In this document: piece by piece, positions 14,356-52,660 of the stretch | Layout of the letters: each line of letters begins with the position of its first letter | Position numbering within the stretch: position 1 is the first letter of the stretch | NCBI GenBank assembly: GCA_021613535.1 | Contig: CP075492.1 | Span: 3,162,001-3,226,000 of the forward strand | Direction of reading: 5' to 3' | DNA length: 64,000 nt | DNA from: Adineta vaga | Lineage: Eukaryota > Animalia > Rotifera | Translations under genes and position numbers: made by a program | The notes under the pieces: generated by a model | Database searches by the model: none | What the model was told of the DNA's origin: nothing | What the model saw: only the letters and a program-made list of their open reading frames with translations

Positions 14356-15514
14356 ATGATAGCAAGTAGAACCCTGAAAAAATTTGTTTTCTTCGTTGTG
14401 ATTGCAGCTGTTGCTGTCCCATTACGATATGGCTCAACAAATCATAAATATATTTTACTACGGTTAATACATTCGGCACTAACAATAAAAAATTGTTTTG
14501 TTGTTGATAAAAATCGACCAACACTTAGTGCAGCTTATCGTGCTTTTGAAGAAATATTAAAGTCCAATAAAGAACCGCCTTATGATCCATTAGCAGATAC
14601 ATTGACAACGATTCAACAACAACGTGCAAGTTTTCCATTGGGTTATATAATTCCTAAACCGTTTCAGTGTCAAATTACAAAGGAAATATTTATATATGGT
14701 GGACACAACGTAGATGCGTATTGGGTTGATCATCGTCAGAAACATTCACAGAAAAGATCCGATAAAATCATACTCTATTTTCATGGCGGAAGCTATACAT
14801 TAGGAGATATTCATTGTAAGTTATTCTATATCTTTACAGATATAAATGATACATTCCGATATTTTGATAGCTTATAGTGGAACTGAATGTCATTATTCTA
14901 AACTATTCAATATGACTATTCTTCATTTGGAATATCGTCTTATTCCTGAGTACCCTGTGCCCTCTGCTCTTGAAGACGCAGTAGCTATCTATCGTGCACT
15001 GCTTGCTCAGGGCATTGAACCATCTCAAATCTTTATTATGGGTGATTCAGCTGGAGGTGGGCTCGCTCTCTTAACAATTCAGTATTTGATTACTCATCAA
15101 TTGCCTGTTCCACATGGTGTTATTGTCCTAGCACCATGGACTGATCTTTCATTATCTGGTGAAAGTTACACACGAAATCATGATACGGACGTTATGTTCA
15201 ATTCAGACAACACAAAATGGGAAGTTAAAGTGATCGTGGATACTCATGCATCGAAATTACCACCAAACGATCCAATATTTAGTCCACTTTTTGGTTCATT
15301 CAAAGGATTTCCACCAATGTATGTGAATGTTGGTACAGCTGACACACTAGAAGATGATGCAAGAGGAGTCGTCAAAAAAGCACAAGAAGCAGGCGTTAGT
15401 GTTACATTTGAGACAGGTTTACATCTGATGCATGTTTATCCAGCATTCTTTGATTACTTTGCTGAAGCACGTCAGACTCTTGATAATATAAACAAATGGA
15501 TTCATTCAATTTAA
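14356..15514 (+). CDS. alpha/beta hydrolase, hormone-sensitive-lipase (Abhydrolase_3) family, N-terminal membrane anchor; intron 14816-14870
   Basis: HGGS oxyanion motif, GDSAGG nucleophile, catalytic D and H (LMHVY); 55-nt GT-AG intron joins the two ORFs in frame (..DIHS/YSG..). Confidence 0.9.
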
Positions 15515-16336
15515 TCACTGATTATACGAAACCCAACGATATTATAATATTCCTAAAACTAAACTCATCTAACTATATTGTATTGTCTTTTCGAAAATAT
15601 ACTTTCTCACATATAATTTCTTAAAAATCGTATGAATCGTACACATTCATAATTATCTATATTCGATTATAAAAGAAAAAAATTGACAATTTATTTCGTC
15701 AAACATTATTCAAGTAGAATAACAAACGATGAAACAACGTCTTGATTTCTTGTGATAATAGTATATCTGCTTTTCTATTTCTATCTTAGATTATGGAAAC
15801 AGTATGATCATACCGTTTTAGATTTGCTGACAAAAGTATCGATTACCAACGAAAGCTTTCTTTAGTCATCCTTTTCTTAGATAAAAATAAAGACAAGCAA
15901 GATTTTTCAAGTTACGTTGTTCGATCATCATTCGTTTTATATTTAATTGAGCAAATGTTATTTTTTCTACAGTTATTGTTTTCTTTCGTCGATATTTCAA
16001 ACAAGTACGAAATTACCTTTTTTCTCCTTTTTCTGCTCAAACAGGTGACGTCATATCTTGCGTAAGTCTTATGTAAATCTCGAGAACTAGCAAAGTTAAG
16101 CAGAACATTAATTAAATCTGCCATACTTTTCTTTTCGAACCTATAAATTCTCCACGCAACTGTTTCCGTTGTTAGATTATGTTTTGTAAGACATTACTCA
16201 GTAAACATTATTTTTACTTTTCGCTTCTGTCTTTTGTTCTAAATAATGAAAAAGAACGATTATTATCTATTCTTCTAACTTGTGAATACCTTTGGAAAAT
16301 ATGTATTAACAATTTTATTCTAGATAACTACTGTTT

Positions 16337-16625
16337 ATGGCCAATACAGACGTTTTACCAGCGATACCAACTTCATTCGTTTATGAAGATTTGGTCGAAC
16401 AAGTTCAAGCGATACAAAATCAACCGATAGAATTTGAAAATATTCCTGCTGAACGATGGCAAAATAATAAAGATATGCGAAAAGAACTCAAATTCCATTC
16501 ATGCACTTTTATTGATCCATATGGAAATGAAATGATCGAAGAACATATCGATCACGAAGCAACGAATAGTATCGTTCGAAAATATCTGAAAAATTAGATT
16601 CAAATTGGTATATTGGATGCAAATG
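16337..16625 (+). pseudogene. N-terminal fragment of an unknown lineage-specific protein, cut off by GPCR copy B
   Basis: 86-aa protein-like ORF (FIDPYGNE..EEHIDHE) after a splice acceptor; sequence switches to the GPCR duplicon at ~16628. Confidence 0.45.
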
Positions 16626-16627
16626 GT

Positions 16628-17881
16628 TTATTTTTGATTTCACTTGAATAGAAGACGTTAATACTTTTCATATATATGTTCTTTGATATATATTAATATA
16701 ATCAATTCTCAAGATTTTTTTACATGAAAATGTCGTTGTTATATATTGGTCAACAAATAACGATTTTTGGTGAATGTTCAATGTTTCTTAGTGGTATCTT
16801 TGGTAATATAATGAATATATTAATATTTTCAACTGCTCAAACAAATCCAGGAACATTTTATTTTCTCGCTGCATCTATGATTAATATCATTTATTTCATA
16901 GGAAATCTATCATTTCGTATTCTAAGTGTTGGATATAATCTTGATTTTACAATCAACTCTGTCTGGTGGTGTAAATTACGAAATTATCGATATATTATGC
17001 TTGGTCCAATTTCATATACTTGTGTTTGTTTAGTCACAATTCTTTATATCTTCATCAAATCCTCGTATTCGACGTTTTAGTAATCTTAAATGGTCACATC
17101 GAATTTTAATTGTTGTCATTATAATTTGGTGTCTTCATGCCATTCCAGTTCTTCTTTACGTAAATAATGTTCCTCCAAATTCGACTTGTATAAATACAAA
17201 TGCAATTTATCGTGTTTATTTAACAATCTTTGGTGTTGTATTTATTTGTGCAATACCAGTAACAATCTCAATCGTATTTGGATGGTTAACTTATCGAAAT
17301 ATTCAACAAACAAAAACTCTTGCTGAACAACGTGCTGATCGACAAATCGTTCGAATGACATTCGTTCAAGTCATACTTATGATTATAGCTGAAATACCTT
17401 ATACGGTTTTTTCAACTTATCTTTTTCTTACAAATCAAAGATTAAAAAGTTATGATCAACAAATGTATGAATATGTTATTATGCAATTGGTTATGTTGAT
17501 TTCATATCTTTGTTTTGTTGTAAGTTATGCACATTTCACAGAAATTTCATTGGATCAATGAAGAAAGAAAACAAAAACAGTTTGTACATTTGATTGTTTT
17601 CTATTGTATTTGTTATCTATGAGTAGATTCTTTATTGTATCATTTGTTTTGTCGTTTATGTTCTCAATTTCTTCGAAGTGTTGATCTCAAATCATGAATA
17701 TATAATGTCATTCTTATTCTTATTCTTATCAATTTTTTCGACAATTTCTTTATATGTGATATATTTTAAAGATTCACTGATCATATTGTTTGTCAATGTT
17801 TAGTAAAACACCAATAATACAAAATGAAAAAATGTTCATAACTTGTTCATTTGTCATTATGCCCACATCCACAACCTTCAA
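16628..17881. repeat. direct duplicate of ~12330-13553 (GPCR pseudogene unit)
   Basis: near-identical from ttattttt..tttc(g/a)cttgaatagaagacg to gtcattatgcccaca. Confidence 0.95.
16724..17520 (+). pseudogene. orphan class A GPCR pseudogene, copy B
   Basis: same TM3 frameshift as copy A; own 9-bp deletion near 16838; retains the TM5 segment lost in copy A. Confidence 0.8.
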
Positions 17882-17882
17882 T

Positions 17883-18992
17883 CTAATTTTTCGTACTATT
17901 TGGTTTTGAATCGTCTTTCTTCTCCCATTCTTGTTTGCATTTTGCTACGAGTTGATCTGTTGTTGGTTGTACACCATTATTTTCCTTAAAAAGAAGAACT
18001 AATATTCCAATATATGCCTCTCCAAATGCTGTGGTAACGGATGCTGCAATACTTGCATCAATTATACCACCAGCAATTGATCCAACACCTGGAATAAACT
18101 TTAATAATGTAGCTAAACCGAGTCCAATAATAGACGCGCCAGCTGCTGTCGTAAAAATTCCCAATAAAGCCATAACAACACTTCGTTCGATCTCAAAACC
18201 AAAAACTGCTGTTATAGATATAATCATTCCTGTTTCAATTGGCACAAGAAGAGCCATATCAGAAAATGGTATTGGTACGGCTGCTGCTGTTACTGCAGCG
18301 GCCGCTGCGGTTACGACAATAGCCTGTGCCTTGATGAGTTTAGCATTAAAATCGACGTTTTGAGCAGCAAGAAAAGCTATTTGCTGTGCTGCTGGGAGTA
18401 ATTCATCTGTCATTTTTACGAGATTTGGAAGTCCCACTGGTGAAATAGGTGGGTATCCTGCGCGCATAACTTTCTCCTTTGCGACAACAGATATGACTTT
18501 CGAATCTTGAAATTTGTTTTGCACTTCATTAAATAAAGTTTCATCTTCGTCGTAAGATTGTGTAATAACAATAATTACTGGTGTGTATTTGGAAATCATA
18601 TTAACAAAGGCTATTTCACCCTCTTCCAGTCGATGCGACATGTGTGATATACACATCCAAGCTATATGAATATGTTCATTTATATCCTTTTTCTTTTGAC
18701 ACTGTTTTATAAATTGACATACTTCATCCATTATTTTTTTATACTCTTTCATTTCAAGACCACGTGAATCAAACAGTGTTAATAGAGTACCAGGTATCGG
18801 ATATTTTTGTATATTCTTTGTAACTGATGAACCCGTGCCAGTTTGTGCTACATCTTTGTTGAATATTGCATTGATGAGAGTACTCTTACCGACTCCAGTA
18901 CGGCCAACAACTATTATATTTGTTCGACCTAACCTTTTTATTTCGTTGTCAATATCTCGATGTAAAGTTTCATGCGTTTGAAGACCTGCCAT
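17883..18992 (-). CDS. TRAFAC (Era/MMR_HSR1-like) GTPase fused to DUF697/YcjF-like hydrophobic C-terminus; bacterial-type
   Basis: intronless 369-aa ORF; G1 GRTGVGKS, G2 VT, G3 DSRG, G4-like TQSYD; C-terminal PIPFSD..LLVPI..GM and LLKFIPGVG..AGG..A...T.AFGEAY. Confidence 0.85.
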   Translation of the reverse strand: MAGLQTHETLHRDIDNEIKRLGRTNIIVVGRTGVGKSTLINAIFNKDVAQTGTGSSVTKNIQKYPIPGTLLTLFDSRGLEMKEYKKIMDEVCQFIKQCQKKKDINEHIHIAWMCISHMSHRLEEGEIAFVNMISKYTPVIIVITQSYDEDETLFNEVQNKFQDSKVISVVAKEKVMRAGYPPISPVGLPNLVKMTDELLPAAQQIAFLAAQNVDFNAKLIKAQAIVVTAAAAAVTAAAVPIPFSDMALLVPIETGMIISITAVFGFEIERSVVMALLGIFTTAAGASIIGLGLATLLKFIPGVGSIAGGIIDASIAASVTTAFGEAYIGILVLLFKENNGVQPTTDQLVAKCKQEWEKKDDSKPNSTKN

Positions 18993-19990
18993 TCGTATTC
19001 ACTGGTACCGATGAAAACTATAAATGAATAGCATAGAAATTGTATTTAAAGATGAGGATCATCATGTCAGTAAAAGTCATTTAGTTTTCTTTTTCTGCTC
19101 ATGCACGTAGACGAAGTAAGCAACTCATTCGAATATAATTAGGTATATACTAACGGCAATGGCTTTTTATCGCGCAATATAGCTTCGGTGCGTCACGGTA
19201 CGCAACACTATTTTGCTATTTTTCTTATTCTTTATTGGATGAAAGAAAAAACAAATATATACATTTAACATAAGTGAAGCGAGCAGCCAATTGATGGAGC
19301 ATTTACCGCAATTTGTCTCAGGTATTAGTAGAGTACGCCATCTATTATCTCTTAACCTCCTCTCACTTTATTTTATTATTCATAGCTCTATATAGTTGTA
19401 CATATGTATATGTCACAGTTGACATGAGAATTTCAGTTGAGATTGGAATGCGCGAAAAAAAAATAGAAAAACAAAATAAAACAGAGAAATAAAAAAAGAG
19501 ATAAATACAATCGAAATAAAATCATAGATAATAGATTTCAAAAAAAAAAAGAAAGAAAAAAAAATTCTTTTTTTCCACCATATTGCTTCTATTATTGAAC
19601 AAAATAAAAATCAATAGAAAATTATCAGTAAAAATCGTTTTAAATAATGCATTCAGTTTACGTTATCATAAACTAATAAAAAGGATTCTTTTATACATTT
19701 CTTCCCAATATTTCACAATTCATCTTTTAATAATACCTTTGAAATCAAATTCTACGTACATATAAATAAATTAAATTATAAGAAAATTGTATTTCAATGT
19801 ATCCCTATGTTAATATTCATTGAATAAGCATAATCCTATTTTTTTCCTGCTCAAATTAAAAACTCATTTATTGAAAAGCAATATAAACACAGCTCACTAT
19901 GACAACATTAATTAACTTAGAAACTACATACATCATTTACTATGTCTTTGTTTTTTCTCTTTTTCTTCTTAATTTATTGAATTCAATTTC

Positions 19991-21979
19991 ATGGAAATAT
20001 TTATTTCGAAACTGAAATCATATATCGATAATCTTGATGAAAAAAAAAGAGAAAAATATACAATCAACAATGATATGTATTATAATATGATGAAAGTATT
20101 AAAAAAAGAAAAAATAGACGCCTCACCAAAATTCAAATTTTGGGTGCGACATACATTTATATTAATGGAAATTGGATCAAATAATGTAATATATAATAAA
20201 AAATCTAATTTGCCATTAATTACACAAGAAAACATGTATCAAAAAATTAAAGATTGCCACACAAACGTTGGTCATTCTGGTAGAGACAAAACATGGAGCG
20301 AGGTTCATACACTAAATTTACTTATAATTAATAAACAGAATTTTGAATAGGTCAAAAAACGATATGCTGGAATACCTCAACAAGCTGTTATTATCTTCAT
20401 CGCCATGTGCGATGCATGTCAAACTAGACGTTCTTTCTATAAACCACCAGCTGGAAAACCAATAGTTTCAATTGGTTTTCTAACTAGATTTCAGGTCGAT
20501 TTAATAGATATGCGAAGTACAGCATATGATGGATATAATTTTATAATGCATTGTAAAGATCATTTTACTAAATTCAGTTGGTTATTTGCATTGAAATCGA
20601 AAGAAGCTAGTGGTGTCGCTGTTCATTTAAAAAACATATTCTATACATTTGGTCCACCTAAAATTTTACAATCCGACAATGGAAAAGAATTCGTGTAAAA
20701 AAATTATTCTATATGCTATTAAATAAATCTTTATTTAGGGCCAATGTCATTTTAAATTTAAAAAATCTATGGCCAGATTTATTAATCATTAATGGACGTG
20801 CACGACATCCACAGAGCCAAGGTCTTGTTGAACGATCCAATGCTGTAGTTCAACAAATGTTAGGTAAATGGCTTGATGTAAATGAAACTTCTGACTGGCC
20901 AAGTGGTTTAGGTAAATGAAATTACAAGATAAAATTCTCATTTCATTCAAAAATATTTTTATTAAAAGGACCTGTGATGTTGGCAGTCAACAACTGTATT
21001 TCACAAACAACAAAGAAAACAGCATACGAAATGGTTTTCGGTCAACCATGTAGAATTGATCATGAATTCTGGTTAGAATTACATAAAGAATCATCGAAAA
21101 ACGATTCAATTGTAAATGAAGAAGATTTACCTGAATCATTTCTCGCAAATTTAAATGCAGTTACAACATCAGTTCGTAGAAATCTAAAATTACGTGTTCA
21201 TTTTTCTTCTTTTATTTACATTTTTCTTTATTCTTTAGACCAACATCGATCATCAACAGATAATTTCTGATGAACAAACATCATCTAGATCATCATTTCA
21301 ATCTGATTTCGATGCACCTACTGAGTACATGATTTTCATTCTTTTTTTCCTATAATTCTAATTCATATGATATTCTTGATTTATAATAGACAATCAACTG
21401 AAACAGCACATAAACGAATACGTGACGAAGCTGAAAAGCATTATATCAATACAGCAGGTACAATTAAAAGATCAATTTTATTTCATTGATACTTGTAAAA
21501 TATAATTCATATCCATTTCAGAACGACAACTAAAAATTTATGAACGTGGTTTGAAAAAACAAAAATCTTTCCAAATCAATGATATTATTGGATTGAAAAT
21601 AGCTGATGTTGACCGTTCACATACAGCACCAAGTATTTTACCTTGTAAAATTATTAAAATTATAACAAAAGATGATTCAAACAATATATTTTATAAACTC
21701 GCCACAGAAGATGGAATTATTAGTGAATTATTTCAATCATCTGATTTCATGGATTTAACACAAACTGTCTCTGCTAATTTAAGAAGAACAGATACAAGTC
21801 AAATACCGATTGTCACATTTATTCAAGCTTGTAAAATATTTACTAAATTCAAAACAAGTAGACCATGTAAATGCGCAGGAAATTGTGATAGTAATCGTTG
21901 TCCGTGTAAGAAACGACTTATGAAATGTTGTACTAAATGTCATCGTGGTAATTCTAATACATGTAAAAACAATGTTTAA
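19991..21979 (+). CDS. DDE integrase/transposase, Ginger2 / KRBA2-SCAND3 type, 7 exons
   Basis: H2C2 finger (CHTNVGHSG...CDACQ), core VDLIDM..DHFTKF..QSDNGKEF..HPQSQGLVERSN (D-36-E), C-terminal CKC...C...RCPC.K....CCTKCH; introns 20303-20350, 20695-20738, 20912-20968, ~21171-21238, ~21326-21389, ~21458-21520 splice in frame. Confidence 0.9.
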
Positions 21980-22635
21980 TTCTTTAATATCATTCAATCA
22001 TTCAAACTGTTTTTCTTAAAATAAATATTCTCGACTTTTATGAAAATCGCAGAAACCATCATTATCAGAACATAAATCATATAAATCAATTTCAGAAACA
22101 AATAAATAAAAGAATCGTAGAAAAAAAGCAGTCACTGTCTTATCATGTGGTTTAGAATTCCCCACATTATTCATATCTTTTAACGCTGTTTTCAATTCAT
22201 GCAATAAATCAGTTTATTAAAGAGCCATTTTTATATCTATTTATTTGATTTCATTAGTTGCTTAGATACGACATATTGAAAATAATTCCGTTTGCATCGT
22301 TAACCTCATCACATTATCATACTTAATAAATAAGAAATCTATTTGTTGACTGAAATAAATATTTCCATTGATTATTTATTTCATTCAATTCGTAACAACT
22401 CATATTTTACTTTCCGTATCATTTACAAACCTATCCTAATCTATCACTGTGAACAAAAATCGACTCATTCAATCTGATATTGCATTGTATGTAACTAATC
22501 ATATCCAATAAATAAATTCGTATTAATATCATTTACTAATCAATTACAAGTATTAATACATAATTCTTAACACCCAAAAATATTTGCTCGAAATATTTCA
22601 TTTTTTTATCTTAATATTTCATTTCAGATAATCAA

Positions 22636-24320
22636 ATGAATAAGAAACATAAAAAATCTAATACAAAGGAAATTGTGAATACTGTTTCAATCGCAACGTG
22701 AATTTAACTAATCTTATTTTCATGCAACAATGATTACAATAATTTTCTTTTTTATCTAGAAATGATAATACCCTACCTATAACAACAACACAAGAACAAG
22801 AACGAGAAGAAGAAGAATATGATGAGAATGACGATCATGATAATGAGAACAATACAAATCCATCACATTCTCTTACAACAACAGGTAATTTATTGCAAAT
22901 ATTCAAAACTTCTCACGTAAATGAGCAAATACATTTATTGTTGTCCTAAAAAAACATAATATAATACTTGCTATGTATATTGACATAATATTTCTAAATA
23001 ATTCAGTTTGACTAAAGACAACCCAATACTACTTGAGGTAGATGTCATGTTGATAGATTTCTTTCTATCGTATTTCATTTATTTTTAGCAGTACAACCAA
23101 TTCTGATTAATATAAATGATATCACTACCGATATAAAATTCGTGTATGTCATTAATACAAATTTTTACAATTATAATGATAAAAATCAGTTCAGTTTGAT
23201 TCACAAATCATTCCTAATATTTTATCTAACTTTATATTCAATCTTTATTTTCAATTTCATTCAAATTTAGATGGAAAATTCATGGATTTGTCACTTGCAT
23301 TTATCCTAAACGAACATTTACAAATTCTCATGGTGTTGGTGAAATTTCAAACTGGGATATAACCGATGAATCAGGTTCAATTACATTGGTGGCATTTAAC
23401 TTAAATTCACATATAATGGCTGATAAATTGAAAATAAATCAAGTACATAATTAAGAAAGAATTTATCACCATAATCTTCTTTTTGTTAATAGGCATATGA
23501 ACTGTCAAATTTAATAATCAGAAGTGCAGTTGATATGTACAAAACATTACCACATCCATTTCAATTAACTTGTACAAATGCAACATGTGTTCGTGATATT
23601 CATCCACCATTTAATATTACACAAATCACATACAATTTCACACCATTGAATCAAATAAACACTCTTCCATTGAATACAATAATTGGTGAGATGTTTCAAT
23701 ATTATCACAGACATTATTCAATTATTCCAAATATAAGATAACACATTTTAATTGAACATAAATCGTCGACAATAAGAAACAAAAAAATTTCGAGCAGATC
23801 ACTAATCAATTTCCCTTTATGCATAAGAAATAAATAATACTAAATACTAGAATCTACATATTAATTAAAAATATCCCACAAAAAATCTATATGAATAATA
23901 TGATTTATAATAATAATTTTTATTTAGATGTTGAAGTACGAGTTCTGCGTGATTTTGGTGTAACAACTGGTACAAAAAATGATTCAGTATGGAGTCGGCG
24001 CGATATACATGTTGATCAAGATGCTTCTCATATTGGTATGACTTTATGGAATGAACAAGTAAAGTAAAATAAATTAATCTATTACTTGAATTAATAATTA
24101 TATAATCTCTTAGGCTCGATTCATAAAAAAGAGTATGATTCATCTTCGATTAAAATTTAAAAATATAAAAATATCTTGGTATGAAGGCATGTAATAAAAA
24201 AACAATTCATATTCTTCACAATATAATTATCGAATAAACGTTTTTATTTTAGGAACACGATTCTTAGTTACTCTACCAAACACACAAATGAAAGTATTTC
24301 GAAATAATTCGATAAAATAA
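22636..24320 (+). CDS. RPA70-like ssDNA-binding protein (DBD-A + DBD-B OB folds) with acidic N-terminus, multi-exon
   Basis: spliced WKIHGFVTCIYPKRTFTNSHGVGEISNWDITDESGSITLVAFN parallels RPA70 [72 protein letters not shown] parallels DBD-B; last intron GC-AG (24187-24252); mostly missed by the ORF track. Confidence 0.8.
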
Positions 24321-24931
24321 CAAAACGTTCTCTCAACAAACAAATCGATGTAAAAGAAATCGAAATCACATTTATTTTTTTATTTTATTTTCATCGATAT
24401 TTATCGTTTCAATGGGATTTGTTTTTCAATCTATAAATATTCAATCTGATTTTCGATTCAATTATTAATTTCGATTCTATTTTATGATAACAATAAAGAA
24501 ATAAGAAAAAACTTCTAAAGGATCTTCTGATAATAAACAAAGATAAAAAAATAAATTCAGCTCTTAATCATCAAGAGAGTTTCTCCATAAGCATGTGATA
24601 TATTGGTGTTGACACCCACATCCTCATACTGACACCGTTCGTTTATTCTGAACAAATCACGCAGACCAAATCGTCTCCTGAGAGAGATGAGATTGTATCT
24701 TCCATGAGCAGGATATATGATACCACTCATATAAATGTAGCAATATGTTCAAGATTCTCTTAGTTTTATAGGAAATTTCTTCGATTTGCAAGAAACAGAA
24801 AATAAATATGAGATTAGAAAATTTTACCACCTTTTTCTCATTGGTTACATCAAATATTTCAAAACGGACAATAGAATCATATCATTCTACATTCCAAAAT
24901 CAAACTTAAATTCGTTACAAAAACAATATCA

Positions 24932-27900
24932 ATGGAAAATAACAAAAACCAAGAGTCACTTAATAATTTAATATGGCAAAGAAATCTATCGAATGCCAGA
25001 AATATCAAAATAAATTTACAATCCATTATAGATGGTCCAATGAAACTATTGTATCAAATATTGAATCATTTTGAAAATCTGAATGGTACAGATCCTATTG
25101 GATTACTTTTAAGTTTATTTGTTTGTGTCGGGCATTTTTGTGGCGAATCAACAGTTAAAATAACAAATCATATATCGAAATTAAATGTTTTCCTTTTACT
25201 AATTGGTCCATCAGGTCATTTTTTATAAAGAAAACACTATAAAAAAATCACTTATACATATATAGGTAGTGGAAAGTCAAAAATAATATCGCCCATTAAA
25301 AAAGCAATAATTCGTGCTATTAAAGCCTTAGGAATTTCAAAACAAGATGCTGGAATCATGGATGATTTCACGAATGCTTCTCTTTCATCGAAATTATCTA
25401 AAACTAATGTTTTCATTCTCACAGATGAAGCTGAAAAACCACTGTTGTCATTGGGATTTTATTCACCATTATCAGAAGTTAGTGCTGCAGATCGTATTTC
25501 TGGATGTAAATTTTTTGGTACAATACCAACAACTAAAGATACAATGAGCTATCATTTGGAGATTAATTCACATTTATCTTTTGTTGGTGCAACTACAGGA
25601 CGATTATGGCATCGATTGATACATTTTTATGCACAAGGTTATCAAAGTGATGGATTTTCAGAAAGGTATTAACTTCTTCTTCATAACTAATCCACAAAGA
25701 TTCACATAATTGAAAGAGTATTCAGCAACTAAAGTTCATTATGAATATCATTGATAAGAAACCTCTAATGAAACATAACGACGATTGAAGAAAATTGAAT
25801 GTTGATTGGTTGATTAATTATCTTATAATTTTTTCCGCACATGTTGATACAAATCTTTCCATTATCGAATCCATAATTATTATACATATACATTAATCAG
25901 GAGATAGAACAAACTTTTATTAATAAGCAACTAATGCTATCATCAAAATTTACTCTATTTCTCTTTTGTAATCTGTTATTCAAGAAATACTTATAACATA
26001 TAATAATACATAAAATACATCATTTTTCATTTTAGATTTCTCCATTATGTTATGCCTAAGAAAAATGAGTTGAATTTTAATTTATCGCAATGCATTGAAT
26101 ATGAAGAAGTTGATGATGGTGATATTGGTGATGAATATGATGATGATATCAGTGATGATGAATATGACACTGAACAAAAACTAAGTTCAAATACGAATCT
26201 TCCAACTTTATGTCAAATTTTAATTATTTGCCAACTTCTTGGAAAACGTAAATTTATTTTAAGCAGAAATGGAACAAAAAAATTCTATGACAAAGTTCGA
26301 CAATATCAAGAACTTTCTCAAATTGATAAACCAGACGATGTCAATTATGGTTCTCGTATGGGAAAATCTGCTGAAATACTATGTAAACTAGTGGCTATAT
26401 GTCAAACACTTAAAATCTCTATGGATATTCTGAAGTAAATATAATGAACTAAAAATTTACTTATATCAATAATTCAACAATTAATTTTACGTTTTAATTC
26501 ATAGAACTCTTCAAGAACAAAAACAATTGATTTCTGGTGATTTAACTTTTAATTTTATTCGAAGTGTAACTCAAATTATTGAAACAAAATATAAGTCTAC
26601 AAACAATATTATGGAAATAGATTCATCTAGTTGTCGACTAGCAGTAACCATTCTTTGTAGCCATTTACTTAAAACATTATTTACTTTGTACAATACAGAA
26701 CCAATTACTGAACCTGACGAAAAATCCACAAATCTACAATCAATTTCTAGTAAAATTCCTTTTCCAAACATTTCTTTTATACTAATTGTTTATTAGTTCA
26801 TTCAAATATAAATACTATTCGTGAACGCATAATTCAATTTCCACAACTTTTCTTCTTGAAACGTGATTTAACTGGAAGTATGGGTGTACTTCGGCATTAT
26901 CCTTCTCAAATGGTCAATATCGTTCTTGATGAATGTATCTCTTATCAATTAATACGAAAAGGACGTATGAGTTTTTAACTATTCAAGCAAATATTTCTAT
27001 ATTCATATCAATATTTTTGTTAGCTTACATCACAACAACGTCTCGTGGAATTGTTCATATGAAATCTTTTCCATCAAATAATATTTTAAATAATCCATCA
27101 AAACTTGTTGCACTTGAACAAATACTTAATGAAAACAATTTGAATTTAACTAGCTACTCAAATATTCTTTGCCAATGTATTATAAAAGAAAAACAAATAC
27201 TTACATCAGCTGGGAAAGATATATTATTGTTACCTGAACACAATCTTTTATATCAACATTTAAAAGAAAAATATCCAGAACGCCAATTAAATGGTAAATT
27301 TTCATATACAACGATCATTTATTTCATTATAATCACTACGTCAATACAATGATCAAATCTATTTTTTGAAACATAAAATTCTATATTTTAATTAATTATT
27401 CTTACAACAAGTTTATAATTTTCAATTTTTTCTATTATAGATATAATTCCTTCATCTCAACCAATTGTTTGCACAAACATTATAAATGAAGAATTACCGA
27501 AATCTACAATAGATAACGCATCAAATATCCTCGACACTTCCGATTATGGTAAAACAATAAGAAATTCATAATGTGCATCATTGTTTTTTTTTCTATTGCA
27601 CAGTAACTAATTTATCAACACCAATTCTGTCATCTACAACAATTGATACAACATTAATAAACAACTTTTACAATAATACACCACCTCCATCAAATGACAG
27701 CTCTTCAGCACTGACATTAAATATTCCAGAAAGTAATTATTTATATTATTTTACATCTGATCATGACCAATATTGAACTCTAATTATTTAGAAAATTTCA
27801 TCACTAATCCACATCGAACACAATCAACAATCAATCAAAATTCAAATCAAAACAAAACGTTACCAATCACAGAACATGAACTCATCACCACAAATAATCA

Positions 27901-28651
27901 TACAATGCATTTTTCTACAAATCAAACTTTTAAATGCATAAAAACAATGATTCCATTACAACAATCACGTATATCATTTTCATAATATATAATACTATTT
28001 GAAAATATCTATCTAGCAACACAATCAGACAAGCAAAACAATGTCAAATATATCATTCCAACACATTCTGGTAAATTAATCAGCAAAAAATCTAAAATAA
28101 AGAGAATTTCATTTTTACTTTCAGTATTATCCTTCAACAATATAAATGATTCAATGCAAATATCCGCTGCTCAAACATCAGTATCAAATATTAATAATAT
28201 CTTCCAGTCATCATCTACTATGGCTCATACTATTCAACAAGTAAATGTATTTTAATTTTTGTTATGAGCTTATTTTTGCGAATCCATCAATAGTATTTCG
28301 TTCGATCGATAAAAAACAATTCCCTTGATATTTTTTACCAATTTTATCAATAAACAATTTTAATAAAAAAATTTCCGTTTTGATTTTGTTTTCATTAATA
28401 ACTACCAAAAACCAAAAATAAAAAGCATATGAATTATACGCATAATTCATCTTTTTTCACCATACTTGAAAATCACTAAATTACTTCTATATTTATTTAC
28501 TATTTAGAACAAATCTTTAACCATGTTAACTAATAAATCGAATACATCGTCAAATAATGCACGCATTGCATACGAAAATAAAACGAATACATCAAACACA
28601 TCACAAATAGTTGATTTGTTTGATAATAACACAAGCATAATTGAATCAAAA
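24932..28651 (+). CDS. DUF3987/YfjI-like AAA+ (helicase-type) P-loop ATPase with long Ser/Thr/Asn-rich region; 3'-truncated
   Basis: Walker A LLLIGPSG/SGKS split by intron 25215-25265; Walker B VFILTDE; sensor-1-like LSFVGATT; Arg-finger-like DGFSER/FL across the next intron; further exons to a donor at ~28652 with no acceptor after. Confidence 0.7.
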
Positions 28652-28677
28652 GGTAATCTTATTATTTGAATATCATA

Positions 28678-28760
28678 TTGAGGGGTGGGTGAGGGGTGTG
28701 GGTGTGGGTGTGGCTGTGGCTGTTTTTTATCTACACTCCGCCTACATCCATACTCTCAAG
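28678..28760. repeat. telomere-repeat hairpin (TGAGGG/TGTGGG arm ... C-rich arm ending CTCTCAAG)
   Basis: ttgaggggtgggtgaggggtgtgggtgtgggtgtgg...cactccgcctacatccatactctcaag. Confidence 0.8.
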
Positions 28761-32377: not shown

Positions 32378-33584
32378 TTCGTTTCTTTTTTGCTGTCGAC
32401 AATTGGTTTGGTTAAACGTCTACTTACGTATTTGTGATTTATATTTACTAACGACCATACTTACATATCCTTCACTATTTGCTTTGACTGATTTGCTCGT
32501 ATGGTATTCACTCGTGTCATAGTCCATTTAAATTATCACTAATCTTTTTAGACAAAAACAATACATGCTGTCATAGAATGACAAAGCATTACAACGCATT
32601 TCAAAATGTTAGATTTACTAAACTTGATGATATTTGATATGCGTTGTTGATTAGTTATTAGCCTAGAGAGTAGTGTTCTTCACGGTCAATACAAAAAAAT
32701 AAGACATATTCATCTGTTTTTTTGACGATGTTCGGCGGATATTTTGTTGTCCGTATATAATAAATTGAACATAAGGGTGAGTGTATATGTCCCTGTTGAT
32801 ATAAAGAGAACAACCACATCCACACTTCACACCCTCAAGATGATTATTATCAATTTGAAGCGAAAATTCGAAGTGAAATGCCATTTACATGTGTTTGGAT
32901 TAGTGATCTTATTGAAATGCCAGAGAAATATGATGATTTCTTTGGACCAAGGTTCAAATTAACTTAACATTCGAATATCCTTTTTTTATAAAGTCACTTT
33001 AGAGAAAAAAAATAAAAAGGAGAGTTTAAGAGTGTGGGTGTAGGTGTTAGACAGATGTAATACTCGCAGCCACCCTCACATTTTTTAGAAGAAACAATCG
33101 AAAATTGATTTTTTCAACCCTCAAAAAAAATAATTCTAACACAATGACATTGCAGTGTGTATCTAAATTGATAAAGTTATATTTTTCTGACATCTGTTTT
33201 ATGGCTTGATAATGAAATTATAAATGCCCATAGAAACAGAAACATAGAATTTACCTTTCATTATTGCAATATGTTACTAATTATTTTTAAAAAAAGCAAA
33301 AATATCGAAAGAATTTCATTTATTTAGATCAACGACTAAATTAATCTGGATTTTCTTCTCATATATTTGTCAAATTTATTTCATTCGATCGATTTACAAT
33401 GTTAAGTCGAAATTTTGAGATGTAATAACATACGAAATGTGCTGTATGTTATTAATGCATTAGGCGAATGTCAAAGTTATGAATTAGATTCAATTAGTTC
33501 AATCTAATAATTTTCAAAACATAAGATTTTATTTTTATTTAATAATCGAACATTGAAACAACAACAAACTACATCAATAATTAT

Positions 33585-36499: not shown

Positions 36500-37530
36500 A
36501 TTTCAAAAATGATCAATATCATTCTGCTGTGTTTAAAATCTCACTGTACTTTCCACCAACAGCTAATACTTTTCCATCTGTTAACAGAAATGCTGTGTGA
36601 GTGCCTTATATACAATTCAACACTCTTTAGATAATAACTACCATTGTGTCCACCAGTAACTAAAACTTGTCCGTTTCTTAATACGGATGCCGTATGTTTT
36701 CCACGTACGTAACTCATGTTACCAGTAGTTGTCCAATTTCCTGTTTCAGGATCATATAATTCAGCTGTAAGTAAAGAATTACCTCTTCCATAACCACCAG
36801 CAACTAATACTTTTCCATTTTTTAATAACGATGCTGTGTACCATATCAGATGAGAAGGAACATTTTGTTTTTTCATTTTTCTTAAATAGTGACGTTTACC
36901 AAGAGAGAAATCTTTATTGAAAACTCACCTAATTGCTGATTGCTAGATGTTGTTAAGACTACCGTTGTAGTTGAATTATGTGTCGCTATTCATCAAAATA
37001 GAATATTTCATGTAAATAAACAGAATACTTTCATTATCAAGTAGAGATTGGAATTAAATTTGATAAAAGGTTCGAGTTCGACATGAATATATGGTTTACT
37101 CACGTTTTACGATTGGTGGACAAATTCGTTGATTACTCATTGATATTGGGTAGCAAACAGAATGATCATAACATCAATGATGATGAACACAAATAGTGTC
37201 GGGCTGTATGCTGACATGTTTTATTTGCACTGGCACAAGGCATTAAGTTAGAACAAAACACTGCAAGAAAACCACAAACATCAGTATTATCAGCACTTGC
37301 TGTATGAAAACAGCCACAAGCACTATTCGTTGAACATCGATCATATTGAGCTACGCCGTCACATATTCGAGATTCTACTTGAACTATGAAAAAAAATTAA
37401 TTAATCATTTAATACATAGAATAGAATTGAAAATTGATTGTTAGAAAAAATAAAAGATAAAAATGAGTTTCATATACCTGAGAAGAATAAAAATGAAAGA
37501 ATAAATCATAGCTTGTAATGAAATGGTATG
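36500..37530 (-). pseudogene. signal peptide + Cys-rich domain + Thr linker + Kelch repeats, disrupted
   Basis: Kelch HTASVLRNGQVLVTGG..AELYDP..W; Cys-rich exon QYDRCSTNSACGCFH..CGF at ~37385-37103; linker exon ~37000-36930; frameshifts and deletions. Confidence 0.65.
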
Positions 37531-40766: not shown

Positions 40767-41037
40767 CCCAGACAGATAGAATCGATAAAAAAACGACGTT
40801 CTTATGTTCGTTTTTTCCAACAGAACGTATATTTACTACGTTAAAAAAATATACTTTTGTACCCATATAAACGATGTTTTTTTTCTTTCAGACAGAAAAT
40901 AGCCGAAAACGACGTTTATACGGGTACAAAGGTGTATTTTTTAAAGTGGTAAATATGTTTTGTTGAAGAAAACCAACATAAGAATGTCTTTTTTTCTCGC
41001 GAAGCGTGTTTTTTTCTATCGATTTTGTTTGCCTGAG
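40767..41037. mobile_element. fold-back MITE flanked by TA
   Basis: TA|cccagacagatagaatcgata ... tatcgattttgtttgcctgag|TA; almost the whole ~270 bp is an imperfect palindrome (tttgtacccatataaacg / cgtttatacgggtacaaa). Confidence 0.8.
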
Positions 41038-48025: not shown

Positions 48026-51000
48026 TTAACATAATTTCATGACAATATTTGTATTTCCATATGCATAGTTTCCAATAATAACATCTGTAACATTATCATG
48101 ATTGATATCTTTTGATGATAATGCAAACGGGCGAGCATTAAAACCAATTGGTAATATAAATTGATTAGAAAAGCTTCCATTACCATAACCAAAGAAAAAA
48201 CCAACATTATTACTTCCATAATTAGCCACAGCTATGTCCAATAGTGTATCATTATTATAATCAGCTATATTAACTGATGATGGTTGAGATTTCAGACCCG
48301 TTGAATAAATAATTTGATTATAAAATGTTCCATTAGTTTTTCCAATAAAAATACCAATAGTATCACTTCCACTATTTGAAATAACAATATCTAATTGATT
48401 GTCATTATTCAAGTCAGCAATTGCAATTGAAGATGGATGAGAATCATTACCTGTTAAATAAATATTCTCACGTATAAATGTTCCATATCCCGATCCAAAC
48501 AGAATCATTAGATTATTAGTTCCAGAATTAGTTACTGCAACATCCAATTGCTTATTATTGTCAAAATCTCCCGTAGCAACAAACATTGGACGAGAATTTA
48601 ATCCAGTTGAATAAGACGGTAAACTTATAAAACTCTTACCAGAATATCCAAGAAATATGCTGATATCATCATTATCAGAATTACATACTGCCATATCCAG
48701 TCGACTATTGTTATTAAAATCAGCAAAGAGAACACCTGTTGGACGTGCATTATAACCAGTTGAATAAGTTATTTGACTGAAGAAAGTACGATTAACATAA
48801 CCAAGAAAAAAACCAATTTCACTTTTTTGTGAATTGACAACAGCAATGTCATCTATACCGTCATGATTCAGATCGATAACAGTCAACGAAGATGTTTGAG
48901 AATCTTGACCAGTTGACAAAATAATTTGATCTTCAAAACTTCCATTTCCATATCCGAAAAAGATGCCAATACTACTAAGTGCACTTTTAGCAATAACAAT
49001 ATCAATATAACCGTCTTTATCAAAATCCCCAGTATCAACAGAAGTTGATACCGAACCGGCACCAGTTGATAAAATTTTTTGTCCAGAAAAACTTCCATCA
49101 CCATTTCCAAACATTATATTTATAACATCACCTCGTTCATAAACGACGGCGACATCTGATCGATTATCATTATCAAAATCTGCAATAACAGCAGAACTTA
49201 ATCCATCGCGTGCACTTATTGGATAATCAATTGTGACAGAAAATTCACCATTACCAATTCCAAGAAAAATATTTATTGTTCCAGTTTCAAAATTGGCTAC
49301 AACAAGGTCTGGTCGAGAATCATCATTCAAATAACCGACGGTAACTTCTCTTGGCCAACCATTACTCTGAGTATTATAAACTATTGTATGGGAAATCGTA
49401 CGATTTGCACCCATTATTAAAATATATAGGAGAAAATGAGCATTATCAATTAAAGCTATGTCTGCTATATTGTCATCATTAAAATCACCAGCATCAACGG
49501 AAGTAGGTAAACATTTATCATCAGGAGAATATATTATCTGATTAGAAAATGTTCCATCACCATTTCCAAAAAAAATTCTAATGGTATGATCTCCATTATT
49601 AGCAGTTACTATATCAAGTCGATTGTCGTTATCGAAATCTCCTATGGCAAACTTAAATGGATTAGAACCTGCACCCGTAGAATAAGGGGTTCGTGATCCA
49701 AAATATCCATAATCATATTGAATTAGTATATTGATGTTATCATTACCATAATTGGCAATAACAATATCAGTCAGATGATCGTTATTGTAATCACCAGTAT
49801 CAATTGAATATGGATTTAAACCATCGGAAATTGAATAACTGTTTTGTTTTCCAAAACTTCCATTTCCATATCCATAAAAAATACCGAAAGAATTTACACC
49901 TGAATTAACAACGGCAATATCTCGATGATTGTCATTATTAAAATCGTGAACACTCACAGCGACAGGAGAAGAAATTGAACCAGTTGAATATTGATCTTGT
50001 ACTGGAAATTCTCCTTGACCATTTCCTAAATAGATTCCAATATTATTTGTAATATAATTAGCAACGACGAAGTCCATTTGATGATCTTCATTAAAATCAT
50101 CGACAAAAATAGAACGTGGACCAGAAGATGATCCAGTTGAAACTGGAGTTCCCTGCATAAAATTTGCATTTGCAAATCCAAGAAAAACACCGAAATTCTT
50201 ATCACCTGAATTAATAACGATAACATCGAGTAGAGTGTCATGATTGAAATCACCAATAGCAGCCGATGTTGGACGTGAATTTTTACTACTTGAATAAATT
50301 ACTGCATTCGAAAAACTGCCATTACCATAACCGAGAAAAAGGGCTATACCTCGACGTTCTTGATGATCAAAAAGAATATCGACTAAACTGTCATTATTAA
50401 AATCACCGACAATTACAAATGATGGATGCGATTCATAACCTGTTGTGTAAATCTTTTGCGGTAGAAAAGTTCCGTTTCCATAACCAAATAGAATGCCTAT
50501 GTTACTATTCCAAGGATTACTAACAACAAGATCAATTTGACCATCACTGTTAAAATCACTGCTAGCAACGGAACTTGTTAATGGATAATAACCTGTTGAA
50601 TAACTTCTTTCATTGACGAAGTGTCCAGCTCCATCTCCATAAAGTATACCTACAGAACCGTAAGGATAGGGGTCAGATTTGTATGTAACTGCTACATCGG
50701 GTCGACCATCGTTATTAAAATCAGTAACAGTAAATCCAGAGGCCGAATATCTAATTGTAGACTGAAATACATCTGTAAAACTTCCATTTCCATATCCAAG
50801 GAAAGCACAAATAACGCTAGAATAATCACACATAAAAGAAATATCGAGATAAGTATCATTATTTAAATCGCAAATAATAATCGATTGTAATTCATCGTAA
50901 AAATCATAATTCAATGTTGTTAAAAATGTGAAAGTTCCAAAACTATTTCCACGATGAATTTCTATTTTGGTTTCATCATAGTTTTGATAAAAGATGACAA

Positions 51001-52660
51001 TATCATCAAATCCATCTTTATCGAAGTCACCTACACCAGTAACAATAGACCACGGCTCATCAATAACTAAATATATCGATTGATTTGAAAACGTTCCATC
51101 ACCATTTCCCATAAAAACTCCCACGCTACCACTATCAATATCAACTACTACAATATCAAGTTTACTATCATTATTGAAATGACCCATATCTACTGAGCTT
51201 GGTTGTGATTCTGAACCAGTTGAATAAATTTTTTGATCAGAAAATGTTGCATTAGAATAAGCCAGTAAAATAAATATATTATTCGTTGCATAATTAGCTA
51301 CAGCAATATCTAATCGTTGATCATTATTAAAATCTGCTCCAACAATAGAATATGGTTGAGAATTTGAACCAGTTGAAAATATAACCTGATCTTTGAATAA
51401 TCCATTTCCAAGACCAAGAAAAACGCCAACATTATTAGTACCACTATTAGAAACAACAATATCAAGTTGATCATCATGATTAAAATCATCAATAATAATT
51501 GAAATTGGTTTAGAATTATTTCCTGTTGAATATGTTCTTTGTTCTGTAAATGTTCCCTTCGCATTTCCAAAGAAAATACAAATATTATTCAGAGCTAAAT
51601 TAACAATAACAATATCCAAATAATTATCTTGATTAAAATCTGCTACATCAATATCATTTGGATAAGATCCAATTCCAGTGGATATAATTATTCGATCTGT
51701 AAATGTTCCATTTCCATTTCCAAAATAGAATTCAATATTATGCAGACCAGAATTAACAACAGCTATATCAAGAGTATTATCATTATTAAAATCTTTAATA
51801 GCAATTGATAATGGTATTGAATCATAAGTCGAAGATAATTGAATTTGATTTTGAAGAAGACCATTATCATATCCAAAGAGAATTCCAACAATATTTGTTC
51901 CATAATTAGTAACAACAATATCAATATATGAATCATTATTTAAATCATTCAAAGCAACTCTTAAAGGACGAGAAGATCCAACTGAATAGACTATTTGATC
52001 TTGAAATGTTCCATTATGATTACCAATAAGAATGCCAATTGTATGAGAACCAAAATTTGATACAACTATATCCAAATAGCCATCTTTATTTAAATCAGCG
52101 ACGGCAATGGATGAGGGTTGGGAACCTATACCAGTTGAATATGTCATTTGAGTTGTAAATGTTCCATTACCCATTCCAAAAAAGATTCCAATATTATTCG
52201 TACCCGAATTAGCTACAGCAATATCCATTTGTTTATCACGATTAAAATCATATGTAACAATACATTTGGGATAAGAATTACTACTGATAAATTGATAATT
52301 GATTGTTTTTATAATCACTTCACATGTTATTTCTAAAGAATATTTAAATCTTTTCTCTCCAATCTATGTTACGAATAAAAAATATTCCTACTTGATTTAT
52401 ACGATATGGTGAAATACCAACCAAAATTGCGACTATCATTGATAGAATTGTAAATAAACTAAATACACCCACACCCTTCCAAGTACGATATTTAGATCTA
52501 AAATCAAAGCGTGTTTTTTTTGTATGAAGATTAAAATAGGATAAACATACCGAAATTGATGAGATTGAGTGTTATTATCTGTATCCATATGAACATCGTT
52601 TACATTCGATAAATTCTCTTCAGAATGTAATTGCTCAATGGTGACAACTGTCTTCTCCAT
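48026..52660 (-). CDS. type II membrane protein with large FG-GAP/VCBS repeat ectodomain (possible 1-nt frameshift in exon 2)
   Basis: 1430-aa exon of tandem D(F/L)NxDxxxDIxVxN...FLGxGNGxF repeats; exon 1 MEKTVV..HQFR (from 52660), exon 2 SKYRTWKGVGVFSLFTILSMIVAILV (TM); acceptor at ~52333. Confidence 0.85.

Follow-up and report, generated by a model that had tools for sequence, protein, structure and literature searches.

In this study we analysed a stretch of 64,000 nucleotides from the bdelloid rotifer Adineta vaga (contig CP075492.1, positions 3,162,001 to 3,226,000, forward strand; hereafter the window, with coordinates counted from its first base). It contains a block of three genes at 19411-28652, all on the + strand, encoding a Ginger2/KRBA2-like DDE integrase, an RPA70-like single-strand DNA-binding protein (SSB) and a DUF3987-like ATPase. 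We interpret the block as a truncated copy, without a gene for a primase-polymerase (PrimPol), of a bdelloid Ginger2-type transposon family. Fuller members of this family carry integrase, RPA-like, PrimPol and MCM-fold ATPase genes, and the family likely replicates its own DNA before re-insertion. We assign this interpretation a probability of roughly 0.7. By membership the family is a Ginger2 variant with an added replication module.

The window gene models are predictions guided by database homologues. All three genes could be spliced via GT-AG introns with zero internal stops, as expected from the initial annotation, which had described three co-oriented, intron-rich genes with intact integrase and SSB frames. 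The integrase gene (19991-21979) comprises 7 exons and 6 GT-AG introns and encodes 547 amino acids, the RPA-like gene (22636-24307) has 8 exons and encodes 289 amino acids, and the ATPase gene (24932-28652) has 12 exons encoding 831 amino acids without a stop codon. The three family assignments made at first, an rve/H2C2 integrase, RPA70 DBD-A/B and DUF3987, were all retained.

The integrase model contains an H2C2 zinc finger (H..H..C..C), a D-D-E core and a Cys-rich C-terminal domain, and thus has the gypsy-like integrase with H2C2 finger and DDE core that is typical of Ginger2. The Pfam families rve (PF00665) and Integrase_H2C2 (PF17921) both matched it below their gathering cut-offs. The model is identical to the Rotaria protein P0067 at 346 of 545 positions, and P0067 matched the IS481 transposase family NF033577 with an E value of 1e-13. 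Among the matches listed (120 of 305, from 6260 candidates) the closest non-rotifer integrases were KRBA2-like proteins of Littorina, Branchiostoma, fish and Rhizophagus. An integrase tree was built from 95 of 124 sequences, with KRBA2-like database proteins and no Repbase sequences as references; 29 sequences were dropped for short coverage, including P0257, which is linked to partner genes. Linkage to partner genes was examined among the top matches only, and the nine integrases in the tree for which it was found all fell within one clade of 19 members (SH support 0.995).

The RPA-like protein is predicted to have two oligonucleotide-binding (OB) folds. Its homologue P0072 matched the DNA-binding domains A and B of human RPA70 (PDB 1jmc) with an E value of 2e-9 and the family TIGR00617 with 8e-20.

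In the ATPase the Walker A (GPSGSGKS) and Walker B (ILTDE) motifs are intact, as is GFSERF, presumably an arginine-finger-like motif. The C-terminal part consists of a winged-helix-like domain and a low-complexity tail. The protein is identical to P0001 of Adineta ricciae at 536 of 831 positions. A search of 974 candidates gave 23 homologues, and all 20 with a species name belong to Adineta or Rotaria; one presumed homologue, P0032, was excluded from the alignments once it had been recognized as a fragment of an Argonaute. When the ATPase profile was searched against 1.84 billion representative sequences, 94 matches were obtained at E ≤0.001. Ten of the more distant long matches were looked up, and the eight clusters that could be named were all bdelloid. 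The cut-off for DUF3987 (PF13148) was passed only by relatives from Didymodactylos, with 36.7-59.6 bits in six of the nine divergent proteins scanned. An Atlas feature search with the ATPase returned DUF3987 in 28 of 30 matches.

An AlphaFold model of the relative P0005, calculated from a 30-sequence alignment, had a pLDDT of 77.7 and a pTM of 0.82. Structural comparison by VIA-align placed it closest to MCM proteins, which filled the top 11 rows (Mcm5: Z 14.8, rmsd 4.9, 267 residues aligned), and SCCmec Cch (5dgk) was matched with a Z of 10.3. With Foldseek the best E value was 4.5e-3, to Mcm7. In a separate comparison the model matched phage primase-helicase and DUF3987 proteins at E 5e-8 to 2e-7. 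Another, full-length fold was of low confidence except for residues ~450-595, which matched winged-helix domains weakly. A PDB sequence search with the ATPase profile gave P-loop matches only. Taken together, the window ATPase is predicted to be an MCM-fold, helicase-like protein that would unwind DNA. Besides this main clade, very divergent DUF3987 lineages were observed in bdelloids (P0173, P0176, P0178, P0180 and P0172), which are 20-27% identical to it. Several of them carry a second conserved C-terminal domain, and an alignment of the divergent ATPases gave no usable motif.

The fourth gene of the relatives, PrimPol, would be expected between the RPA-like gene and the ATPase, where the window has a spacer of 624 bp (24308-24931). 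No PrimPol remnant was found in the window by tblastn of 61 proteins of the PrimPol set, which matched only through fused RPA, integrase and ATPase parts. The junction between the RPA-like gene and the ATPase is not an assembly artefact of the window, because a single contig of the X1 set covers 21540-27490 and crosses it. In L002, a locus recovered in a metagenome scan, PrimPol is an intact frame of 469 amino acids with one intron. A search with this protein gave 58 homologues among 3491 candidates, and every named one was bdelloid. The profile of the PrimPol set matched human PrimPol with an E value of 2.4e-11, and the UL52-type zinc finger (PF03121) was matched by 10 of 24 members. The motifs DxE, SxH and hD together with the zinc finger were all present in 12 of the 23 DxE-bearing sequences, the rest being partial or fused, and they are intact in L002. 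As the nearest ATPases to that of the window, from A. ricciae and R. sordida, lie adjacent to PrimPol, the window copy has most likely lost this gene.

To what extent the genes belong together was assessed from other loci, and their co-occurrence at loci with different flanks, anticipated at the outset, was indeed seen in other bdelloids. The metagenome scan yielded at least five loci (592 stretches; L001 and L002 represent one locus). L002 contains the integrase on the minus strand (492-2534) and RPA, PrimPol and ATPase on the plus strand, all within 15 kb, and another locus, L004, contains PrimPol followed by the ATPase. Scans of genome_contigs gave 0 loci. The same gene order is preserved in fused models from Rotaria (P0070, P0376, P0231, P0186, P0200, P0215 and P0026), and from all of these except P0070 the order integrase, RPA, PrimPol, ATPase could be recovered piecewise. 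PrimPol is fused to the ATPase in P0026 of Rotaria sordida. In P0070 integrase, RPA and ATPase follow each other with no PrimPol, as in the window, and in P0179 from Didymodactylos an integrase C-terminus, which groups with a different integrase clade, is joined to a very divergent DUF3987 ATPase. Linked partner genes were found in six species, A. ricciae, A. steineri, R. magnacalcarata, R. socialis, R. sordida and R. sp. Silwood1, on the basis of parent contigs of equal size and accession numbers 3-36 apart, a measure that says nothing on order or distance. In R. magnacalcarata, for example, the linked set consists of CAF2086623 (ATPase), ...633 (PrimPol) and ...643 (integrase).

The ATPase is not a single-copy gene, and both ATPase and PrimPol occur as several lineages within one species. 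At a threshold of <80% identity R. magnacalcarata has four lineages among 8 ATPases and seven among 8 PrimPols, and D. carnosus has five among 5 ATPases; the species entries used for these counts pool several assemblies. In the trees sequences pair across genera and not by host. The neighbours of the genes differ as well, being a GTPase and a short-chain dehydrogenase/reductase (SDR) in the window and PIF1 and Josephin fragments in L002. In the gene models P0041 and P0008 the ATPase is fused either to part of an Argonaute or to a zinc finger of the TTF type, and in P0240 PrimPol is fused to a MULE domain. We regard these fusions as traces of insertion beside different sequences. Between the window and L002 the dN/dS of the three genes was 0.165 (512 codons), 0.168 (189 codons) and 0.154 (573 codons), at a dS of 1.3-1.7, which is near saturation. 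These ratios indicate that the three window genes are under purifying selection.

The left end of the element reads GTATA/TGTCA at 19411 and fits both the Ginger2 target RTATAY and the Ginger2 terminus TGTNR (PMC2836005). The TGT start proposed in the initial annotation is confirmed, and the four bases before it (19407-19410, TATA, preceded by G) are a probable target site duplication, of which the window holds the left copy only. The motif RTATA/TGTNR by itself is near chance in the window, with 6 occurrences on the + strand against 4.2 expected; the expectation within 600 bp of the integrase ATG is ~0.04. The motif alone is therefore insufficient, and we consider the terminus supported because of a homologue in L002 and a peak in contig depth. 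From its first T the window left end aligns with L002:16847-16884 on the opposite strand in 29 of 39 columns, the last 15 being exact. The alignment score of 45 was never reached with 150 shuffled targets and only once with 200 shuffled queries, and the best match of the L002 terminus in the whole 64 kb was again 19411-19449. In L002 the terminus sits 2 kb past the helicase stop and reads ...CCACA/TATG; on the minus strand it begins at 16884 with TGTGG, which fits TGTNR, and its right flank, TATGC, has one mismatch to RTATAY. Since the homologue of the left terminus lies beyond the L002 helicase, the module sits inside the transposon ends. We thus describe 19411-19449 as a left terminal inverted repeat (TIR) of at least 39 bp, with the homology spanning two different elements in opposite orientation. 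In X1 the summed contig depth was 430 at 19431, compared to 11-26 nearby and 11-39 over the rest of the block. A variant lacking one base was also seen there, close to the gap in the alignment of the window with L002. The peak points to many ends of this type, although depth does not equal copy number. Of the TIRs and the 4-bp duplication that the initial annotation proposed to define, an inverted terminus was found in L002, and a candidate duplication was seen on one flank per copy only.

Three further observations concern the termini. The flanks 19402-19410 and L002:16885-16893 both read ATATGYATA next to TGT (8 of 9 positions alike, n=2), which suggests either that the preferred target is a palindrome extending beyond RTATAY or that the true terminus lies a little more outward. 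Between helicase and right terminus L002 contains three tandem repeats of ~100 bp with a TGTCCC-rich core (15185-15455), and our guess is that they are a candidate origin or binding sites. A nested element of 1.16 kb with perfect 26-bp TIRs and TA-rich flanks lies within the L002 transposon at 15652-16809.

Self-BLAST, a scan allowing mismatches and a repeat finder all failed to reveal a right TIR in the window, and none follows the end of the integrase gene at 21979. A match to the TIR core with one mismatch at 37040 was rejected, as it has no TGT end and is at chance level. The position 28678, taken in the initial annotation as the end of the element, is a break point instead, because the left end has no inverted copy anywhere in the 64 kb; the ATPase there is incomplete, its model ending at 28653 with a splice donor, and the window contains no counterpart of the basic exon with which the ATPases of P0001 and L002 end. 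A short hairpin repeat of G-rich and C-rich sequence (28679-28758) starts 26 bases past this splice donor. It belongs to a high-copy family and lies outside the element, and X1 contigs branch at 28679. Related copies were found at 33031, 39974, 45760, 46543, 53127 and 60697, and the core motif was absent from L001-L005. The family appears MITE-like, with members of 60-80 bp, TGAGGGTGTGGG-like arms and a very high contig depth.

The uniform composition claimed for the block holds up poorly. Its GC content (26.7%) is lower than that of its flanks (31.2% and 30.5%), but three other window stretches that were checked have 26.5-28.0% and the value is not specific to the block. Composition was therefore rejected as boundary evidence. 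Depth steps in X1 suggested a third, diverged copy comprising only the 5' part of the integrase (19598-21569). An X1 joint between 21487 and 26902 was disregarded, one of its sides having 21 bases. In summary, the window copy is defective, without PrimPol, the last helicase exon and the right terminus. With PrimPol and a right end to be supplied by other copies or loci, it is probably immobile.

How a complete member might transpose can be outlined as follows. The integrase would bind the TG...CA ends and either release the element or start copy-out. The element would then be unwound by the helicase, which probably forms a hexamer and uses its winged-helix domain for loading at an internal origin, possibly the ~100-bp repeats seen in L002, and the RPA-like protein would coat the single strands. 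PrimPol could prime and extend, perhaps handing over to host polymerases; PrimPols have low processivity, which would explain such a takeover. Finally, the integrase would join the product to a TATA-centred site, duplicating 4 bp of the target. The initial annotation had regarded integrase, SSB and helicase-like ATPase as a minimal kit for replication and integration. The three components are indeed present and fuller relatives add PrimPol. That the family replicates itself, and with it replicative transposition, is inferred as likely from gene content, linkage, the termini on two different copies and selection.

Several results speak against this interpretation. The DUF3987 score of P0001 was 23.5 bits against a cut-off of 27, and the close relatives of the window ATPase all stay below gathering. 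In no case did one copy show both termini together with both target duplications, the right end being absent from the window and the L002 sequence stopping before the left end. The integrase of L002 is inverted relative to that of the window. Both the window copy and the P0070 lineage have no PrimPol between RPA and ATPase and their frames are still open, so that PrimPol may be dispensable or supplied in trans. Contig depth in X1, which is not a measure of copy number, places the window copy apparently on both homologues, as would be expected for an old fixed insertion or a host locus. The linkage in six species demonstrates existence and gives no rate, because the ten proteins were chosen after the size match. 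Co-divergence in Mantel tests was weak to moderate, with p 0.014 for integrase and PrimPol (n=6), 0.13 for integrase and ATPase (n=5) and 0.05 for ATPase and PrimPol (n=8).

The main rival, which we consider unlikely, holds that the genes form one transposon moving by ordinary cut-and-paste or copy-out, with helicase, RPA and PrimPol as IEE-like accessory factors for the processing of intermediates or donor-site repair and not as a replisome. The relationship of the integrase to IS481/IS30 transposases would fit such a role. IEE, a PrimPol-helicase, acts on copy-out-paste-in insertion sequences of the IS3 type (bioRxiv 2023.06.07.543989), and the bacterial PrimPol AgaPP has end-joining activity (PMC11724360). 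The open frames of PrimPol-less copies and the apparently low copy numbers agree with it as well. On the other hand, an MCM-fold ring helicase, an SSB and a primase are the usual complement of a replicon, the bacterial PrimPol-DUF3987 pair was read in PMC11724360 as the replication machinery of its element, and ordinary Ginger2 elements, 2.7-6.7 kb long, move without any of these genes (PMC2836005). That the block is a domesticated, immobile host cluster of old transposon origin, serving DNA repair in desiccation-tolerant rotifers, is improbable. Introns, purifying selection, the presence on both homologues by contig depth and the occurrence in all three bdelloid genera with named matches would agree with such a function. 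It is contradicted by the four to seven divergent lineages in one species and the pairing of sequences across genera, and also by the differing neighbours, the many truncated copies, the retained termini and the high-depth terminal sequence.

A capsid-less remnant or integrated form of an unknown rotifer DNA virus or Polinton-like element has a still lower probability. The combination of integrase, primase and helicase recalls some Polinton-like viruses (PLVs; PMC4642659), the PrimPol shares the UL52-type zinc finger, and the helicase resembles phage primase-helicases. Against this, spliceosomal introns interrupt all of the genes, not one locus was recovered from viral_contigs when it was scanned with the ATPase, PrimPol, integrase and TIR core, and no frame for a capsid, packaging ATPase or protease, or of the size of a protein-primed DNA polymerase B (pPolB), was found in the window block or in L002 from RPA to the right terminus. 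The initial annotation had likewise seen neither pPolB nor capsid genes. For pPolB the ORF lists of the window block and of L002 from the integrase to the right terminus contained no such frame; for capsid, packaging ATPase and protease ORF lists and tblastn of the window block and L002 gave none, no dedicated capsid profile having been run. To the left of the L002 integrase these negatives extend over 490 bp, and further genes could lie beyond. Least probable of all is that a plain Ginger2 landed by chance beside an unrelated RPA-PrimPol-helicase element. Nesting is known among bdelloid transposons, the window and L002 have the integrase in different orientations, and the third copy suggested by contig depth comprises the 5' integrase part only. 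However, six species show the linkage, each time with integrases of one clade, and an integrase-type terminus lies beyond the L002 helicase, which largely refutes this explanation.

We then compared the proposed transposon family with known systems. Like Ginger2/TDD elements it has an H2C2 and DDE integrase and TGTNR termini, and the flanks seen, one per copy, would fit a TATA-centred target with a 4-bp duplication. In Ginger2 the TIRs are about 45-260 bp long on one element, and the listed elements have the transposase as their described gene, the word helicase not occurring in that paper (Bao, Kapitonov and Jurka 2010, PMC2836005). In contrast, the L002 member of the family described here is more than 16 kb long when its insertions are counted, and the family has RPA, PrimPol and a DUF3987 helicase in addition. 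With Polintons/Mavericks and PLVs it shares a retroviral-type integrase, TIRs and replication genes of its own, and some PLVs even have an archaeo-eukaryotic primase (AEP) fused to a helicase (PMC4642659, PMC6431247). The rotifer integrase differs by keeping the H2C2 finger, which Polinton integrases are without (PMC2836005); moreover, the helicase is of the MCM-fold DUF3987 type and not SF3 or SF1, and the genes are intron-rich. Helitrons with RPA cargo (PMC6431247) are similar in having an RPA70-like gene beside a helicase in a transposon, but have hairpin ends where the rotifer family has TIRs and a DDE integrase. No HUH Rep or PIF1 helicase was found in the window block, and the PIF1 fragment of L002 begins outside the terminus at 16884.

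The family would work like prokaryotic integrative replicons. For AgaPH, a bacterial DUF3987 protein on an integrase-bearing element, 5'-3' helicase activity and binding to the partner PrimPol, AgaPP, have been demonstrated (PMC11724360). Both AgaPP/AgaPH and PrimQH/All3500 (PMC5862659) combine an integrase or recombinase with a primase-polymerase and an MCM-like helicase, and the SCCmec protein Cch is the structural match to the P0005 model described above. Unlike these replicons, the rotifer family resides in an animal, its genes carry spliceosomal introns, its integrase is a DDE enzyme accompanied by TIRs, its PrimPol is of the eukaryote type and its SSB of the RPA70 type.

On balance we lean, with some reservation, towards the family being a new class of animal self-synthesizing transposon, a capsid-less and intron-rich Ginger2 whose minimal replisome would combine an MCM-like helicase of phage type with PrimPol and part of RPA70, and which would have diversified across bdelloids since before the Didymodactylos split. 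In agreement with the initial annotation, no described element or eukaryotic superfamily with this combination was found in the full-text literature, PMC7943196 and PMC6222260 containing nothing of relevance; Repbase and subscription journals were outside its scope and an existing Repbase entry is possible. The self-synthesizing eukaryotic transposons in the cited literature are virus-like and use protein-primed PolB. Arkhipova and Yushenova (PMC6431247) considered that a primase-coupled, integrase-bearing element could arise, and the new class, if true, would approach such an element. The combination of DDE integrase, primase-polymerase, ring helicase and SSB would then be the eukaryotic counterpart of bacterial integrative replicons, offering a replicative transposition route without virions. 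It would also mean that a phage-type helicase was recruited into an animal transposon, in a four-protein system that is directly testable. The question bears on the persistence of transposons in the anciently asexual, desiccation-prone bdelloids.

Several other features were observed around the two main loci. Directly to the left of the window element lies an intronless GTPase gene (17883-18998) with a DUF697 domain (Pfam), which looks like a horizontally acquired gene of bacterial type. An open frame of 1445 amino acids (48026-52363) is built of 51-residue (153-bp) repeats, presumably of the FG-GAP/VCBS family. Local duplications of 91-94% identity were found at 40-2102/6599-9083, 12330-13532/16627-17871 and 52408-53145/59974-60709, and we take them to include NHL-repeat-like and GPCR-like genes. 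Two small MITE-like inverted-repeat elements are located at 2347-2911 and 40783-40999. In L002, outside the right terminus (17040-18640), the C-terminal fragment of a PIF1-like helicase precedes a Josephin domain, which scored above the PF02099 cut-off; the pair may be what is left of a Helitron-like element that carried a Josephin protease. Further on (20490-22707) L002 contains an inverted repeat of 156 bp and a tandem repeat of 24 bp, together with minus-strand frames for which the Pfam matches were unconvincing and which we presume to resemble a Mutator-like transposase.

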